Shown: piece after piece, positions 26,748 through 60,409 of the stretch
Position numbering within the stretch: position 1 is the first letter of the stretch
How the letters are laid out: each line of letters starts with the position of its first letter
Source: an uncultured Verrucomicrobia subdivision 3 bacterium
Lineage (GTDB): Bacteria > Verrucomicrobiota > Verrucomicrobiia > Limisphaerales > UBA11358
NCBI GenBank assembly: GCA_903917705.1
Contig: CAIXBQ010000103.1
Span: forward strand, 36,889-100,888
Length of the DNA: 64,000 nucleotides
Direction of reading: 5' to 3'
Made by a program: the position numbers and the translations under genes
The notes under the pieces: generated by a model
What the model was told of the DNA's origin: nothing
Seen by the model: the letters and a program-made list of their open reading frames with translations, nothing else
Databases searched by the model: none

Positions 26748-27782
26748 GTGCCGTCCGATTCCGAATCCTTTCACTGGCCCCGCGTCAGCATCATCATGCC
26801 GACGCTGAACGCCGGGGAGCTGCTGGACAATGTGCTCGGCTCCCTCGCGCGCCAGACCTGGCCGCGCGACCGCTATGAGATCATCCTCGCCGACGCCCAT
26901 TCGAAGGACCGCACCCGGGAAATTGCCGCCCAATACGGGGCGATCGTCCTGGACGACAACGGGAAAAACATGGAGGAGGGCAAGCGCCTCGCGCTTCGTC
27001 ACGCCACCGGCGAATACATCGTCTTTGTGGACGCGGACAATGAGATCACCCACCCCGACTACCTGGAGCTTGCGGTGAAGGCGCTCGCGGCGAATCCGCA
27101 GGCGCTCGGGGTGGAGGGCTATTATCTGCCGTCACCGAAAATGAGTTCGTTCTGCGCCTACCTCACGCACCGGCTGCACATCAGCGACCCGATCTGCTGG
27201 CTGATGAGCGCCAATCCGCAGCTCGTGGCGCGCGACGGCGAGGCGGAACGCTGGCGGCTGCCGGGGAATTCCTGCTCGTATCCGCTCGGCGCGAACGGGT
27301 TTGTGTACCGGCGCGCGGATCTGCAGGCGGTGCAGGCCGGCGAAAAATTCCAGGACACGCATGTCGCGCTGTTCCTGATGAAGAACGGGAAGCGCGAATG
27401 GCTGCGGATCCGGGGGCGCGGGGTTCATCATTATTACGTCCAGACGCTGTGGGGCTTCGTGCAGAAGCGCCGCCGCGCCACGGTGCATTTTCTGCGCGTG
27501 CAGGAAGAGATGCCGGTGAACTGGATGAAGGAAAAGCCGCCGGTGCCGCTGTGGCTGGCGGCGGCCTATTGCGTCACTTTTTTCGGCCCGCTCTGGCACA
27601 CGCTGCGCGGAATCGCCCGCGACCGCGACGGGCGGTGGCTCTGGCATCTGCTCGCGAGTCCGGCCAGCGTGCTGGGCAATGCGTGGGGAGTGCTGACCTA
27701 TCGGCGGCGGCGCAACGACCGGGGCACCGGCGGCCAGAGCCTCATCGCCGAACTGCAGGTGAAACAGACTTTGAAGCGGTGA
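26748..27782 (+). CDS. Glycosyltransferase family 2
   Basis: VSIIMPTLNAGELL, ILADAHSKDRT and the FVDADNE (DxD) motif. GTG start. Confidence 0.8.
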   Translation: MPSDSESFHWPRVSIIMPTLNAGELLDNVLGSLARQTWPRDRYEIILADAHSKDRTREIAAQYGAIVLDDNGKNMEEGKRLALRHATGEYIVFVDADNEITHPDYLELAVKALAANPQALGVEGYYLPSPKMSSFCAYLTHRLHISDPICWLMSANPQLVARDGEAERWRLPGNSCSYPLGANGFVYRRADLQAVQAGEKFQDTHVALFLMKNGKREWLRIRGRGVHHYYVQTLWGFVQKRRRATVHFLRVQEEMPVNWMKEKPPVPLWLAAAYCVTFFGPLWHTLRGIARDRDGRWLWHLLASPASVLGNAWGVLTYRRRRNDRGTGGQSLIAELQVKQTLKR

Positions 27783-27795
27783 GGTCGGACGACAA

Positions 27796-27946
27796 AAACA
27801 GAGGTCAGAGATCAGCGGTCAGAGGTCAGACCGCAAGACTACGGACTACGGACCAAATCCGGAATGCGAAAAGCGAAAAGCGGAAGTTAAACACCAAGGC
27901 ACCAAGCATTTCTTAGCCACAGATGGGCATAGATGAAACACGGATT
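27796..27946. repeat. Chain of stuttered words in a convergent spacer
   Basis: Words: GAGGTCAGAG..GGTCAGAGGTCAGA (27796-27830), GACTACG x2 (27837-50), GCGAAAA x2 (27866-79), CACCAAGG/CACCAAGC (27892-27907), and TTAGCCACAGATGGGCATAGATGAAACACGGATT (27913-27946). Confidence 0.9.
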
Positions 27947-27987
27947 CAGGGGAATAAACAAACGCCTCGCAGAACCGGAGCAGACCA

Positions 27988-29049
27988 TTACTTTTTTGGC
28001 CGTTTGGAGTAGTTGAACGTCTGCCGGCCGCGGATGAAGGCGCGCACCATGCTGAGGGCGTAAACCGAAAACATGACGGCTACGGCGAACGGGATCAGGG
28101 GCGCCCGCCAGTCGCGCGTGAGCATGGCCCACCGTCCGTAGTAGGTGGCGAGCGCCAGCAGGAGCACCAGGGAGGTCAGCGAGATGATCGGGACCGGGAT
28201 AAAGATGCCCACCAGCAGGCCCAGCTTCAGGCTGTTGACGATCGTGATCGGCAGGGCGCGCCGCGCCAGCGCCCAGGCCAGGCCATGCTTGCGCAACATT
28301 GCGCCGGCCCCCTCGCCGATCTGGGCATGTTTCCGCAGCGTGGAGCTGAACCGCGACGAGGGCGGATGCAGGTGCGCGTGAATGACGATGACATCGGAAA
28401 AAGCGACCTTGCCGACGGCCAGCAGGCGCTCAACCATGTCCGCATCCTCACCCGCCGAAGCAAAGTGCACCTCATCGTAGCCCCCGATTTTTTCCAGCAC
28501 ATCGCGCCGGATGATGTCAAACTTGTTGGCCAGCCCATGCGCGGGCTTGGCATGGCGAAATTGCGACGAAGTCACCCGGTCCCAAAAGCTCATGGTATCC
28601 CAGTCGCTCTGCGGAATGTCGATCAGCGGCTCGACCGCCACCGCCCCCTCCCGCTCCAGCCAACCCACCTGGCGCAGCAGGGCATTGTCGTCCGGCAGAT
28701 AGCAATCGGGATGCATGTAGCAGACATAGCGCGAACGCGCGGTCTGCCAGCCCAGATTGCAGGCGCCGGCCATCCCCCGGTCCAGACGCTGGACTTTCAC
28801 GATGTCCCAGTGCGAGCCCAGCGGGTGGGCCTGGATGATTTCCAGCGTATCGTCCTGGATGAGGTCGCAGAGGAAAATAATCTCGCAGCGGGAGGGCCCC
28901 TGCTGCCGATGGAGGCTGTCGAGCGCCTTGCCGATCGTGACCCGGCAGCTATGGATGGGCATCACCACGCTGACCCAGGGGGCGGCCGGGTCCGGGGGCG
29001 GTGCGGGGGTGGATTTGGCGGTGGCCGGTTGCTCCATATTGATATTCAT
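27988..29049 (-). CDS. Glycosyltransferase family 2 with C-terminal transmembrane segments
   Basis: Start taken at MNINMEQPA (the ORF track extends to 29160). VSVVMPIHSC, IIFLCDLIQDDT, and three C-terminal hydrophobic helices. Confidence 0.7.
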   Translation of the reverse strand: MNINMEQPATAKSTPAPPPDPAAPWVSVVMPIHSCRVTIGKALDSLHRQQGPSRCEIIFLCDLIQDDTLEIIQAHPLGSHWDIVKVQRLDRGMAGACNLGWQTARSRYVCYMHPDCYLPDDNALLRQVGWLEREGAVAVEPLIDIPQSDWDTMSFWDRVTSSQFRHAKPAHGLANKFDIIRRDVLEKIGGYDEVHFASAGEDADMVERLLAVGKVAFSDVIVIHAHLHPPSSRFSSTLRKHAQIGEGAGAMLRKHGLAWALARRALPITIVNSLKLGLLVGIFIPVPIISLTSLVLLLALATYYGRWAMLTRDWRAPLIPFAVAVMFSVYALSMVRAFIRGRQTFNYSKRPKK

Positions 29050-29071
29050 GGATGAAAGCTGCGGTGCGGGG

Positions 29072-29668
29072 CTATGTCGCAGCCCCGCTTGGAACGGATG
29101 AAGGGTTGATCCGGCGCAGCAGCCTGGCCGGCGCCCCGGCGATGACCGAGCCGGCCCCAAACGATTTTGTCACCACAGAATTCGCCCCCACCACAGAATT
29201 GGCGCCAAGGGTCACGCCGGGCATGATGACCACGTTGCAGCCGATGAAACATTGGTCGCCGATGACGACCGGGCGGCCCGGGGTGAGGCCGCTCGTCACC
29301 GGGCTGAGGCCGGGGCCGGTGACATGCGAATGATCCATCACCGTCACGCGGTAGGAAAGCAGGCAGCCGACGCCGATCTGAATGGCCTGATTGGCGGTGA
29401 TGACAAAATCATTGCCCACGGAAGTGCCCGAACCGATCCGGATTTTCGCCTGGCGATTATCCAGCGGCAGATAAAACCAGCCGCGCCGCCCCAGGCTGAC
29501 GCGGTCGCCGAGCTCCAGATTCCGCACATTGCCCAAAGGCCACTCGATGCCGGCACCGGCGCGCACGCCGCCGCCGGCCCGCAGGCCCAGGCAGCGCGGC
29601 AACAGGAGTCGGAAGAAACTGACGAGTCCGTTCCAGGCACCCAGGATGCGACGAAGAAAATTCACCAT
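29072..29668 (-). CDS. Hexapeptide-repeat (LbH) O-acetyltransferase
   Basis: Repeating [LIV]-G-x4 pattern: [27 protein letters not shown]...[31 protein letters not shown]. Confidence 0.8.
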
Positions 29669-30989: not shown

Positions 30990-31023
30990 TTAGCCACAGA
31001 TGTGCACAGATGAAACACGGATT
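30990..31023. repeat. Second copy of the CACAGATG module (32/34 identical to 27913-27946)
   Basis: TTAGCCACAGATGTGCACAGATGAAACACGGATT. Confidence 0.9.
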
Positions 31024-39834: not shown

Positions 39835-39906
39835 AATGGTTTGAATCTGTGTCCGGCCGCCCGGACAGTCAAGCGGATTAAGCCATTTTAGTCACAGATG
39901 GCTACA

Positions 39907-39940
39907 AAACAGAGGTCAGAGATCGGAGGTCAGAGGTCAG
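39907..39940. repeat. Second copy of the GAGGTCAGAG module (about 32/35 identical to 27796-27830)
   Basis: AAACAGAGGTCAGAGATCGGAGGTCAGAGGTCAG, preceded by TTAGTCACAGATGGCTACA, a partial CACAGATG module. Confidence 0.9.
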
Positions 39941-57306: not shown

Positions 57307-58716
57307 TCAATGGCTTTTAACGAAGCGGCGGATGGTGTCCACCATGTAATCCAGCATGGCCGGCGTCAGGCCGGGATAAGTGCCCACGAACACCGCCTCG
57401 TTCATGATACGATCCGCCCCGGCCAGGTCGCCGACAACGCGAAAGGCGCCGGGCGACTGCCGCCGCAGGGTGACGAACGCCGGCTGGCGGACCAGATTGC
57501 CGCCGAACAGCATCCGGTTGCCAATCTTCGCCCCGTCGAGGTGTTTGACGAATTCGGTGCGCGTGAACGGCGCGCTGCTTCTGACGAGCATCATGAAGCC
57601 GAACCAGGAGCACTCCGTCCGGTGGCCGGACGGATCCCAAGTAAAACCCTGCGGCGACCAGGCGGTGGCGTGCGTCGGCAGCTGGAACTGGAAAAATTCC
57701 TCCAGTCCGGCGAGCGCCGCGCGGAGATAATCCCAGTTGTCCATGCGCGCCTGGATGAACGCGGGCAACTTCTTCAACTGCTGCCGGCCAATCGCCGCCT
57801 GCGGGTCGAGCGGCTTCAGGTTGTAGCCGAGATGCGAATAAATGTATTTGTGGTCGTAGCCGGCGGGCAGTTCGCCGAGCTGCCAGCCGAAGCGCTTGTG
57901 GCAGGTGTCGTCCTTGCCGCTCGGACACCAGCAGTCGCGGCCCCAGTCGCGGAAACTTTCGGCCAGCACCTTCAATTTCATGTCGCGCACCACGTTCACC
58001 GCGCCGCCTTCGCCCATCGTGAGGTGATGCGGCGGATAAAAGCTCTGCGTGGAAAGGTCGCCGAACGTGCCGGTGAATTTCCCGTCATAGCGGCAGCCGA
58101 GCGCGTCGCAGTTGTCCTCGATCAGCCAGAGGTTGTGCCGGCGGCAAAAATCCGTGGTGGCCGCGAGATCGAAAGGGTTGCCGAGCGTGTGCGCCATCAT
58201 CACGGCCTTGGTTTTGCCGGGCGCGAAAGCGGCGGCCAGCTGGTCGGCGCGGCCGTTCAGCGTGGCCGGGTCGTTGTCGATGAACACCGGCACGCAGCCG
58301 CTCTGTAAAATCGGCGCGACGGTCGTGGGAAAACCGGCGGCGACCGTGATGACCTCGTCGCCGGGGCGGAGCTGGCGGTCACCGAGCTTCGGGCTGGTGA
58401 GCGCGGCCAGGGCGACGAGATTGGCGGAGGAGCCGGAGTTGACGAGGATGGATTTTTTGACGCCGAGCAGCGCGGCGAGCTCGGTTTCAAAGGCGTCGCC
58501 TTCGGGGCCGAGCGTCAGCCAGAAATCCAGCGTGGCGGAAACGGCGGCCTCCACTTCGTCTTCGGTGAACACGCGGCCCGCATAAGGCACGGTGGTCTGG
58601 CCGGGGACAAAGGCGGGGCGCCGGGGATCCGCGCCGGGCCGGTTGGCGGCGTGGGTGGCGGCGGAGAACTCGCGGGTGAGGCGGAGGATTTCGGCTTTGA
58701 TTTCAGCGGGATTCAT
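57307..58716 (-). CDS. ddhC: CDP-6-deoxy-L-threo-D-glycero-4-hexulose-3-dehydrase (E1, RfbH/DdhC)
   Basis: Near end-to-end resemblance to Rfb[15 protein letters not shown] has His where aminotransferases carry the PLP Lys (nt 58027-58029). The Fe-S motif C-x-C-x7-[13 protein letters not shown], lies at nt 57901-57933. Confidence 0.88.
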
Positions 58717-58733
58717 TTTATCAGGGAAATTTT

Positions 58734-58816
58734 ACCATGAAGGGCATGGAGGATATGAAGGGTTTTTAAGGGATTTTTCCAGCTTTAGGCTTCAGGTTCC
58801 TCATGTTCTTCATGGT
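58734..58816. repeat. Left hairpin of the GxxExxY cassette (ACCATGAAG...CTTCATGGT)
   Basis: Arm ACCATGAAGGGCATGGAGGATATGAAGG (58734-61) and arm CCTCATGTTCTTCATGGT (58799-816). Confidence 0.8.
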
Positions 58817-58819
58817 GGA

Positions 58820-59194
58820 TTAATTCAAGAAACTCCTCAAACCATCCTTGAGCAACCGGACGTTGAAGTTGATCAGCAAACCCTGTTTGAGTTTTGCCAG
58901 CTTGAGATAGCTGATGATCTGGGCTTCGTGGATGGGATGGACTTCATCCACGCTCTTGAGTTCCAGCAAAAGGGAATCCGCCACAACCATGTCCATGCGA
59001 TAGGCGCAGTCAATCGTCATGCCCTTGTATTCAAAAGTGAGCGGAGCCTGCCGGCGGAAGGGGGTGTTGCAAAGTTCCAGTTCCCGGCACAGGCAGGCCT
59101 CATAGGCCGACTCCAAGAGTCCGGGGCCAAGGACCTTGTGAACTTCAATGGCAGCACCGATAACCTGGGAAACCAGCGGATTATCTTTTAACAT
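58820..59194 (-). CDS. GxxExxY-family protein (PD-(D/E)XK-like fold)
   Basis: LGPGLLESAYEACL is the GxxExxY motif; 124 aa, the typical family size. Confidence 0.85.
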   Translation of the reverse strand: MLKDNPLVSQVIGAAIEVHKVLGPGLLESAYEACLCRELELCNTPFRRQAPLTFEYKGMTIDCAYRMDMVVADSLLLELKSVDEVHPIHEAQIISYLKLAKLKQGLLINFNVRLLKDGLRSFLN

Positions 59195-59206
59195 AAAACG
59201 GATTTA

Positions 59207-59299
59207 ACCATGAAGAACATGGAGGACATGAAGAAATTACCTGAGTGATTCTGGAAAGCCCGTTTTCCCTACCTTCATGTGCTTCATGCTCTTCATGGT
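59207..59299. repeat. Right hairpin of the GxxExxY cassette (27-nt arms, 24/27 complementary)
   Basis: ACCATGAAGAACATGGAGGACATGAAG (59207-33) pairs with CTTCATGTGCTTCATGCTCTTCATGGT (59273-99). Confidence 0.85.
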
Positions 59300-59305
59300 A
59301 ATGTT

Positions 59306-60409
59306 TCAGTCCGCGGCCCACGCGATGCGCGCGGCGCGGGCGGCAGCCTCGTATTCGGCAATCTGGTGGAGGGTCAGGCTTTCAGCCGTTGCCGGGCGAT
59401 CGTTCACACCGCGATACCAGGCCACGGTGCGGGCGATGGCGGTCTCAAATTGCCACGTCGGCTGCCAACGCAGAATCTTTTTGGCCTTGGCGGTCGAGAG
59501 CATGAGCAGTTTTGCCTCGTGCAGCGCGTGCGGATCGCTCCGGTCTTCCCACCGGCCCGGCCAGCTTTTCAAAACTTCGCGGACGAGGTCGCCGACGTTG
59601 CGGTTGGCCTCTTTTTCCGGGCCGAAGTTGAACGCGGTCAGCAGGTCGCCAGCCTCGGCGGCCACCAGTTCCGGCTGCGCGAGCGCCGCGGCCAGCCAGA
59701 GATAACCGCTCAAGGGCTCGAGGACATGCTGCCACGGGCGCGTGGCGGCAGGATTCCGGATGGGAATCGCCGCGTCGCGCTGCAGGGCGCGGATGCAGTC
59801 GGGCACAATCCGGTCGAGCGCCCAGTCGCCGCCGCCAATGACGTTGCCCGCGCGGGCGCTGGCGATGCGGACGGGCGACCGGCCGAAGAAGGAGCGGCGA
59901 TAAGCGCTGGTGACGATTTCCGCGGCGCCTTTGCTGGAACTGTAAGGATCATGGCCGCCGAGGTGATCCTCCTCGGCGTAAGCGTAATCCCGCTCGCGGT
60001 TCTCGTAGCATTTGTCGGTGGTGACAATGACGGCGGCGCAGGGTTTTTCCAGCGAGCGCAAGGCCTCCAGGACGTGCGCGGTGCCCATGACGTTCGTGGC
60101 GTAAGTCTCCAGCGGGTGTTCGTACGAATAACGGACGAGCGCCTGGGCGGCGAGGTGAAAGATAAAATCCGGCTGGACGCGGAGGATCGACTGTTGCACC
60201 GCGCCGGCATCGCGCACGTCGGCGATTTCGTGGCCGATGGTTGAGGCCAGGCCGAGCTGTTCAAAAACCGACGGCGTGGTGGCCGGCGGCCGGGCGAAGC
60301 CATGGACGCGGGCGCCAAGCCGGACGAGCCAGCGCGCGAGCCACGCGCCCTTGAATCCGGTGTGGCCGGAGAGCCAGATGGTTTTGCCCTGAAAGAGGTT
60401 GGCGAACAT
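59306..60409 (-). CDS. ddhB: CDP-glucose 4,6-dehydratase
   Basis: GKTIWLSGHTGFKGAWLARWL and DPYSSSKGAAE. Confidence 0.9.
   Translation of the reverse strand: MFANLFQGKTIWLSGHTGFKGAWLARWLVRLGARVHGFARPPATTPSVFEQLGLASTIGHEIADVRDAGAVQQSILRVQPDFIFHLAAQALVRYSYEHPLETYATNVMGTAHVLEALRSLEKPCAAVIVTTDKCYENRERDYAYAEEDHLGGHDPYSSSKGAAEIVTSAYRRSFFGRSPVRIASARAGNVIGGGDWALDRIVPDCIRALQRDAAIPIRNPAATRPWQHVLEPLSGYLWLAAALAQPELVAAEAGDLLTAFNFGPEKEANRNVGDLVREVLKSWPGRWEDRSDPHALHEAKLLMLSTAKAKKILRWQPTWQFETAIARTVAWYRGVNDRPATAESLTLHQIAEYEAAARAARIAWAAD

Follow-up and report, generated by a model that had tools for sequence, protein, structure and literature searches.

The window analysed here, a stretch of 64,000 nt from an uncultured Verrucomicrobia subdivision 3 bacterium (contig CAIXBQ010000103.1 of assembly GCA_903917705.1, positions 36,889 to 100,888), carries on its minus strand an operon in which ddhB (CDP-glucose 4,6-dehydratase; 59306-60409, TIGR02622, E 7.6e-139) and, downstream of it, ddhC/RfbH (CDP-6-deoxy-D-xylo-4-hexulose-3-dehydrase; 57307-58716, NF011936, E 1.7e-196) are separated by a spacer of 589 nt. 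Most of this spacer is a single unit of 566 bp (58734-59299) on the same strand as the operon, in which a gene of the GxxExxY family lies between two hairpins built from short repeated words; its G+C content is ~51%, compared with ~65% for the flanks. A preliminary description of this DNA had proposed that the unit is a small mobile cassette, which lands between genes without disrupting them and whose removal would leave a normal operon junction of about 23 nt. The arithmetic holds (the ddhB stop codon sits 6 nt from the cassette edge and 17 nt remain on the ddhC side, 6 + 17 = 23 nt), and the presence of a GxxExxY gene between two hairpins at this junction is confirmed by profile matches and by comparison of the folds with shuffled sequences. 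No second GxxExxY copy was detected in the window by tblastn.

The GxxExxY gene (58820-59194, minus strand) encodes a PD-(D/E)XK nuclease-like protein of 124 aa, which matches PF13366 (PDDEXK_3; E 2.9e-39, 134.5 bits against a cut-off of 22) and TIGR04256 (E 1.6e-40, 138.1 bits against a cut-off of 35). The residues of the name-giving motif (G25, E28 and Y31), as well as those of the core (D68, E78 and K80), are invariant across 33 aligned homologues, and the AlphaFold model of the protein has a predicted local distance difference test score (pLDDT) of 94.6. By sequence, no solved homologue was found, and a Foldseek search against PDB returned weak matches to Cas4 SSO0001, lambda exonuclease, Hjc and a tRNA-splicing endonuclease (best E 2e-3). 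A defence-system or phage protein was considered and rejected, given the lack of matches to known defence (PADLOC) and phage (PHROG) families and of any GxxExxY gene among 50,697 phage records (tblastn). GxxExxY genes occur in only 8 plasmid records, mostly large replicons, while the profile search places 32,870 clusters at 50% identity in GxxExxY/PF13366 (14,553 at E 1e-10). Some 15 of the best-scoring members (P0241-P0255; 240-295 aa) show two matched stretches, i.e., two tandem GxxExxY domains, and represent either true fusions or read-through of tandem cassettes.

In the operon sense, the upstream hairpin (59207-59299) starts with arm A1 (ACCATGAAGAGCATGAAGCACATGAAG, 59273-59299), the outer 5' arm, in which three CATGAAG words recur every 9 nt and which is oriented as a canonical left arm; it continues with a 39-nt loop (59234-59272; homologous to the loops at orthologous sites and poorly conserved) and ends with the inverted copy A1' (CTTCATGTCCTCCATGTTCTTCATGGT, 59207-59233), which pairs with A1, or with A2 when the unit is folded as a whole. 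The downstream hairpin (58734-58816, likewise on the minus strand) consists of arm A2 (ACCATGAAGAACATGAGGAACCTGAAG, 58790-58816; three words, partly degenerate), a 29-nt loop (58761-58789) and the outer 3' arm A2' (CTTCATATCCTCCATGCCCTTCATGGT, 58734-58760), which has the canonical right-arm orientation and is nearly invariant at orthologous loci. The 27-nt arms are paired at 24 of 27 positions in the first hairpin (RNA folding energy -38.6 kcal/mol, z -5.6) and at 20 of 27 in the second (-27.4 kcal/mol, z -5.9), with 0 of 200 shuffles reaching an equal energy in either case. All four arms are triplets of 9-nt nnCATGAAG units, and the chance expectation of the exact hairpin pattern CCATGAAG...CTTCATGG in the window is 0.00.

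Folding the whole 621 nt as RNA pairs the outer arms with each other and the inner arms likewise, enclosing the gene. In both hairpins the middle word of the 3' arm (59207-59233 and 58734-58760) is CTCCATG, not CTTCATG; this variant is shared by all orthologues (loci L011, L079, L001 and L005) and produces a conserved A·C mismatch in the sense RNA, which would be G·U in antisense RNA, so the two arms of a hairpin are not strictly equivalent. A role of the hairpins as promoter or terminator was considered and rejected, the search of 58500-59500 having turned up neither a promoter-like sequence (sigma-70 hexamers) nor a terminator-like one (a T run behind a G+C-rich stem). A known RNA family was likewise rejected, as Rfam gave nothing credible for the cassette and no credible rRNA or other family at 40 other GxxExxY loci.

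Word-repeat arms across the GxxExxY family

Metagenome contigs scanned with the 33-homologue alignment yielded 80 unrelated GxxExxY genes (50-63% identical to the window protein), of which the 73 with at least 120 nt of flank on each side were used for a flank test. In 57 of these 73 loci the upstream and downstream flanks form inverted repeats that score above every control; the mean ungapped flank score is 17.8 vs. 7.9 in a reverse-not-complement control (control maximum 11). An arm consists of (T)TCAC and then 7-nt words spaced 8-9 nt apart, three as a rule and occasionally four, these words (CACAGAG, CGCnGAG, CACGGAG, CACGAAG and CATGAAG) conforming to a consensus CRYNRAG, of which the CATGAAG of the window is one variant. 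The left arm begins 30-60 nt ahead of the start codon and the right arm 10-30 nt past the stop codon; paired arms are typically 380-410 nt apart, the whole unit measures ~430-460 nt, and the same word type is found on both sides of an element. The nearest protein neighbour has the same word class in 38 of 66 cases vs. 15 expected by chance. A generic three-word pattern gives 473 matches in 1.12 Mb of fetched loci and 0 in shuffled sequence, and wherever a gene, complete or in recognisable decay, was found between such arms, it was GxxExxY. Thus, two expectations raised by the preliminary description, namely that other GxxExxY copies have similar flanks and that the words are specific to the gene, are both borne out, the flanks of unrelated copies being made of the same kind of word. 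Its view of the basic unit calls for revision: a cassette with repeat flanks it is, but the unit is arm-gene-arm with terminal inverted repeats, full hairpins being a recurring elaboration. The hairpin-gene-hairpin layout of the window is found again in Gemmatirosa, but with CGCAGAG words.

The insertion contexts of these cassettes are mutually unrelated (radA, the fab operon, ade, ddh and others), and the arms usually abut the stop codon of a neighbour. In Bacteroides finegoldii they touch the radA stop codon and the next start codon (radA|cassette|FAD protein), and in Sphingomonas parapaucimobilis the arms of a cassette at the fabD|fabG junction touch stop and start codons as well. Target-site duplication beyond chance is absent from the 39 elements compared, where direct repeats of 0 (22 elements), 1 (10), 2 (4) and 3 nt (3) occur at about chance frequency. 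Relative to the upstream neighbour, 49 GxxExxY genes run in the same direction and 17 in the opposite one; for the downstream neighbour the figures are 48 and 16. In 30 cases both neighbours are co-directional with the gene and in 3 both are opposed. Given this operon orientation and the lack of promoter-like or terminator-like sites, the cassette is presumably expressed by read-through transcription.

A comparison of arms within and between the 39 gene-bearing elements separates the words from the letters between them. Word letters are 93% identical between the two arms of an element vs. 80% between elements, and the lengths of arm spacers agree in 76 of 78 cases within an element vs. 55% between elements, whereas spacer letters are only 46% identical between the arms of an element vs. 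38% between elements. Likewise, in 51 distinct CATGAAG hairpins the 7-nt words are ~90% paired, while spacer positions are Watson-Crick in 38% of cases vs. 36% for arms taken from different hairpins. A signal of compensatory covariation in spacer dinucleotides was withdrawn (1644 of 5000 permutations reach the observed value). The conservation of words, with spacer letters neither conserved nor complementary, suggests a row of sites bound by a sequence-specific reader rather than a plain stem, as a helix selected for pairing alone would not show this pattern. Repeated words do flank the gene, as had been noted from the window; the conserved feature, however, is the 7-nt word and its spacing and not the base pairing of a stem.

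The arms also leave traces in gene annotation. Gene callers extend GxxExxY open reading frames (ORFs) into the left arm (P0054, P0059 and P0072; L230 1501-1540), giving rise to artificial N-termini such as MKSMEFMK and MEIMKG, and spurious short ORFs (34-63 aa) are called on hairpins in L001-L016. Internal CACGAAG at the conserved HEAQ codons was considered as a meaningful word and dropped, ~0.7 chance matches being expected per gene.

Empty sites and the history of the ddhB|ddhC junction

Proteins 82-93% identical to that of the window cassette are also encoded between ddhB and ddhC, on other contigs and with different outer neighbours. These orthologous loci carry the same CATGAAG hairpins in 1-4 copies, and their words have hardly changed, in contrast to the drifting loops and spacers. 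Relatives with empty or filled sites were located via RfbH similarity, and the empty sites that a landing cassette should leave in relatives were found in three close syntenic loci. In L217 (Limisphaerales; RfbH 90% identical), which is fully syntenic with the window down to isomerase, epimerase and NIF3 genes, the ddhB-ddhC spacer is 7 nt; in L218 (RfbH 88% identical) it is 8 nt; and in L220 (RfbH 86-87% identical) ddhB and ddhC overlap. The site is filled in L219 (RfbH 88% identical).

The empty site of L217 reads TAA TTTTCCC ATG, and the filled site of the window reads TGA AACATT, then the cassette (ACCATGAAG ... CTTCATGGT), then AAAATTTCCC TGATAAA ATG. In the window, ddhB terminates at the codon position at which it also does so in the empty-site relatives, and the residual junction AAAATTTCCCTGATAAA (58717-58733, minus strand) ahead of the ddhC start codon includes a TTTCCC stretch that corresponds to the whole empty-site spacer. 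Comparison of the two junctions places the unit directly after the ddhB stop codon.

Among the orthologous copies, identity is 82-89% for the cassette protein, 86-91% for RfbH and 77-85% for ddhB, and the ratio of nonsynonymous to synonymous divergence (dN/dS) of the GxxExxY gene is 0.09-0.18 at dS 0.5-1.1. A more distant copy in plain single-arm form occupies the same junction in L230, where the values are 69% for the cassette (identity to P0072), 69% for RfbH and 61% for ddhB. To judge from this co-divergence with ddhC, the low dN/dS and the invariant D-ExK and GxxExxY residues, the cassette at ddhB|ddhC is ancient, co-inherited with ddhC and under strong purifying selection. Supposing that the ancestor shared by the window and L230 already carried it, the empty sites of L217 and L218 would imply scarless loss or allele replacement. 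In L219, a ddhB (L219 positions 752-1918) only 58% identical to that of the window stands beside a close cassette (85%) and a close ddhC (88%), which suggests a recombination breakpoint right beside the cassette. Recent transposition was considered and rejected, as look-ups of P0016, P0031, P0015 and P0072 all led to the same ddhB|ddhC locus and to no new one. Of the proposed landing at this junction, the insertion between genes without disruption therefore stands, but the event is not recent: the copy is ancient, vertically inherited and maintained.

An identical cassette protein is encoded on an 85-kb contig of ENA sample ERZ1426829, in which the gene calls split ddhB into parts of 277 aa and 88 aa, unlike the window ddhB, which is one intact ORF of 367 aa; a frameshift or an assembly difference between the samples is a possible cause of the split call.

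Gene-less hairpins and other word arrays

A scan for three CATGAAG words in one genome per species gave at least 120 loci, distributed over Methylococcaceae, Desulfobacterota, Acidobacteriota, Planctomycetota, Chloroflexota, Nitrospirota, Bacillota, Verrucomicrobiota, Lentisphaerota and others; an inverted partner arm lies within 160 nt in 56 of the at least 120 loci listed. Among these listed matches, most CATGAAG hairpins are solo and stand between ordinary genes, and a gene adjoins the hairpin (within 100 nt) in L022, L031 and L079 only, in each case GxxExxY. Other cargo in CATGAAG-type arms was looked for and rejected, complete genes among the matches listed being those three GxxExxY genes only. 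The hairpin loops of L128 and L055 retain remnants of a GxxExxY C-terminus, and L001 likewise holds 3'-end remnants in the form of gene fragments fused to a hairpin arm; in the enclosed stretches beyond L022, L031, L079, L055 and L128, no recognisable gene was found among the hairpin-selected matches listed. Multiple hairpin copies with related loops occur in single genomes (Thiocapsa, Methylobacter and the uncultured-bacterium metagenome-assembled genome (MAG) CAZIEA01), three solo hairpins stand in tandem in L139, and in L122 different word types are nested three levels deep. Pieces of the gene's 3' end persist in decayed, nested and tandem forms.

The window itself contains two lone arm-like modules on its plus strand, which the preliminary description had taken for possible scars related to the cassette. 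The first (TTAGCCACAGATGGGCATAGATGAAACACGGAT, 27913-27945) and the second (TTAGCCACAGATGTGCACAGATGAAACACGGAT, 30990-31022) are both CACAGATG modules with an outer end TTAGC|C and three CAYRGAT words spaced 10 nt apart, and neither has an inverted partner arm in the window. They could be what is left of a related element, perhaps one of the four-helix-bundle type discussed below. They do share the three-word design, but as lone arms they are no more than putative relatives of the cassette.

The spacer that contains the first module (27783-27987, between convergent ORFs 26748-27782 on the plus strand and 27988-29160 on the minus strand) is filled with stacked short tandem-word runs, namely (CAGAGGT) x4.6, (GACTACG) x2.4, (GCGAAAA) x2.4 and CACCAAGG x2, followed by the CACAGATG module, and the CAGAGGT run recurs beside TCACAGATG at 39893-39940 (region 39886-39940). 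The stacks at 27783-27987 and 39886-39940 look like lone arms of several word families gathered in one spacer. A different repeat family occupies positions 1-500 of the window, where ~41-nt tandem units and several long inverted repeats are found (e.g., arms 65-94/121-150, with 90% complementarity, and 346-370/460-484; words include CCGCTATCCAGGAAATGACC and ATTGTAAGCTTACAAT).

Interpretation and comparison with known elements

Our preferred reading, to which we assign a probability of roughly 0.6, is that 58734-59299 is one copy of a class of compact selfish cassettes (~0.45-0.57 kb) whose protein acts on its own arms. The canonical unit comprises a left arm, a spacer of ~15 nt, a GxxExxY gene of ~125 aa, another spacer of ~15 nt and the same arm inverted; in the window copy each single arm has been elaborated to a hairpin, giving the order A1-A1'-gene-A2-A2' with canonical outer arms. 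The encoded nuclease would bind as an oligomer to the word arrays of both arms and cut at or near the element ends, and this cutting would drive both gain of the element, whether through transposition or through its being copied into alleles that lack it, and its scarless loss, with gene-less hairpins as non-autonomous derivatives. In the operon transcript, the arms may pair and offer RNase III sites for release of the cassette RNA, as in the intervening sequences (IVSs) of 23S rRNA. That the PD-(D/E)XK protein reads its own arms is our best guess; the reading of the arms and cutting of DNA, the route of movement and the RNase III processing are steps that we infer.

The 23S rRNA IVS is the closest parallel among known systems. 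In Coxiella burnetii it is an element of 428 nt with a G+C content below that of the host and an ORF for an S23p four-helix-bundle protein; the ORF is preceded by three tandem GACAGAT heptamers, RNase III cuts at the start of the first repeat, and the origin and mobility of the element are unresolved (PMC4990558). Shared with the cassettes are the size (~430-460 nt), a small ORF within inverted arms, about three heptamers in the 5' arm, a G+C content lower than that of the host and a sporadic distribution. The IVS cargo, however, is a four-helix bundle (PF05635) and not a PF13366 PD-(D/E)XK-like protein, IVS-type words (GACAGAT, GTCGGAR, GATGAAK) differ from the cassette word CRYNRAG, and the IVS sits inside an rRNA helix whereas the cassette sits at a protein-coding operon junction.

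Genes for four-helix-bundle proteins found outside rRNA (PF05635 E 9e-11, TIGR02436 E 4e-17) also have inverted word-repeat arms of three to five 7-nt words, as exemplified by TTGCAGA in a Chthoniobacteraceae MAG (L125 4038-4406, minus strand), GTCGGAR x4-5 on pNPUN01 of Nostoc punctiforme (L225) and GATGAAK x5 on a Chlorohelix plasmid (L227). Among the 5 plasmid-borne genes of this kind examined, inverted arms are clear in 2 (Nostoc and Chlorohelix), and in the remaining 3 the repeats are direct or reversed in orientation. One four-helix-bundle gene lies 500 nt from a GxxExxY cassette. Several four-helix-bundle genes stand between unrelated genes, and on cyanobacterial plasmids some are found next to cas1 or in the interval between cas1 and cas2. 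To judge from what is a small sample of four-helix-bundle genes, each cargo family seems to have a word of its own, as expected if each cargo protein reads its own arms.

Other mobile elements resemble the cassettes in part. Like repetitive extragenic palindromes (REPs) with their REP-associated tyrosine transposases (RAYTs), the cassettes have a gene flanked by hairpin repeats that are also dispersed without the gene in intergenic DNA of the same genomes, and the hairpin-gene-hairpin arrangement of the window and Gemmatirosa mirrors REP-RAYT-REP. RAYTs, however, are HUH/Y1 transposases of the IS200/IS605 kind and usually single-copy, whereas the cassette protein matches PF13366 alone and belongs to a very large family; REPs are lineage-specific palindromes, in contrast to 7-nt word arrays common to many phyla. 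Free-standing homing endonuclease genes (seg and mob of T-even phages; the PD-(D/E)XK enzyme I-Ssp6803I) share with the cassettes a nuclease gene placed precisely between genes, presence/absence polymorphism in close relatives and the lack of target-site duplication. Yet they do not require terminal inverted repeats and give rise to no gene-less hairpins, both of which the cassettes have, and they usually decay after fixation, in contrast to the strong purifying selection on the GxxExxY gene; the 50,697 phage records, moreover, yielded no GxxExxY gene. Miniature inverted-repeat transposable elements (MITEs) and DNA transposons have in common with the cassettes terminal inverted repeats, dispersed gene-less derivatives, and nested and tandem insertions; the cassettes differ by the absence of target-site duplication and of a DDE transposase, and by repeats that are three-word arrays instead of a single end sequence. 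Integron attC sites place RYYYAAC/GTTRRRY cores on one side of the ORF, whereas the cassettes have CRYNRAG arrays on both sides and no GTTRRRY cores.

In the full-text literature searched, no description of the arms or of the cassette nature of GxxExxY genes was found, and arm sequences gave unrelated primers only. In the only classification of the family that was located, PF13366 is listed with "Unknown" function and multiple lateral transfers (PMC3424549), and the PDDEXK_3 domain is named in passing in a paper on the classification of reverse transcriptases (PMC8934634).

The arms of the family and the empty sites support the original idea of a small mobile cassette landing between genes. 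Several points, nevertheless, weigh against a self-moving selfish element. Movement was not observed, and at ddhB|ddhC the cassette co-diverges with its flanks, so one old insertion combined with allele replacement could explain the pattern of presence and absence. Word classes follow the protein tree only partly, the classes being polyphyletic. The structural likeness of the protein to known nucleases is weak (best Foldseek E 2e-3), and we know of no way in which a 124-aa PD-(D/E)XK protein could by itself carry out strand transfer. Since four-helix-bundle cassettes have similar arms and no nuclease, the arm-acting machinery may be host-encoded. Long-term purifying selection, moreover, is unusual for a purely selfish nuclease and would be just as compatible with a function that is addictive or of use to the host.

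A serious alternative, although we hold it at less than even odds, is an RNA-level element of the IVS type, in which the arms serve mainly to pair in the transcript and RNase III releases or destroys the cassette RNA, making the insertion harmless to the operon. The protein would then do something else, and horizontal transfer or ordinary recombination would account for the spread of the DNA. Such an element would account for hairpins that fold far better than shuffles, for a 621-nt fold that pairs outer with outer and inner with inner arms around the gene, for the co-orientation with operons and the lack of promoter-like or terminator-like sites, and for the equal spacer lengths of the arms, which would give symmetric internal loops; the Coxiella IVS, at 428 nt and with three heptamers, is indeed excised by RNase III at its first repeat (PMC4990558). 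It accounts less well for spacer positions that are no more complementary than those of arms from unrelated hairpins, for a word sequence conserved across phyla that pairing alone does not require, for the A·C mismatch of the middle word, kept in the sense RNA of all orthologues, and for the absence of an Rfam match. Processing of this kind and a selfish cassette acting on DNA are not mutually exclusive.

Domestication appears unlikely. Here the gene would be host-beneficial, encoding a housekeeping, repair or defence nuclease, with the word arrays as its operators, and the locus would be the relic of an ancient insertion that no longer moves. The dN/dS of 0.09-0.18 over dS up to 1.1, the co-divergence with ddhC and ddhB down to 69% identity and the retention of words at orthologous sites speak in its favour. 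On the other hand, no PADLOC defence or phage family is matched, the insertion contexts (radA, the fab operon, ade, ddh) are unrelated, close relatives do without the cassette, and the 32,870 clusters at 50% identity, together with decayed, nested, tandem and gene-less copies, form the signature of a proliferating element. The notion that the hairpins are generic intergenic palindromes (REP-like or terminator-like), adjacent to the gene by coincidence, can be set aside as very improbable: it could appeal to the mostly solo occurrence of CATGAAG hairpins (GxxExxY within 100 nt in 3 of at least 120 loci), but it is already contradicted by flank scores, arm-pattern counts and matching word types, given that 57 of 73 GxxExxY genes carry arms at a fixed position and orientation, that complete or recognisably decayed genes between such arms are all GxxExxY, that solo hairpin loops hold GxxExxY 3'-end remnants (L128, L055, L001) and that terminator-like features are lacking.

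Returning to the selfish-cassette reading, a broader and more tentative proposal, which we consider possible rather than probable, would unite GxxExxY genes and genes for four-helix-bundle IVS proteins as cargo of a hitherto undescribed class of word-armed mini-elements, with protein-driven scarless insertion at, and excision from, operon junctions and with the gene-less hairpins of many phyla as their non-autonomous offspring. If this is true, such elements (~450 bp) would be among the smallest autonomous mobile units of bacteria, and their chemistry would be unlike that of DDE, HUH, serine or tyrosine recombinases, with a protein that reads at least three heptamers per arm. The nature and mobility of 23S rRNA IVSs, an old question dating from the 1990s, may be approached anew in this context, the cassettes possibly representing such elements within protein-coding operons. 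Cultured model organisms are at hand in Bacteroides finegoldii (radA junction) and Sphingomonas (fabD|fabG junction). For the family itself, the analysis turns a set of "hypothetical proteins" into a defined genetic element with word-repeat arms, operon junctions and empty sites, and the intergenic hairpins found across phyla (CATGAAG, CACAGAG and similar) become interpretable.

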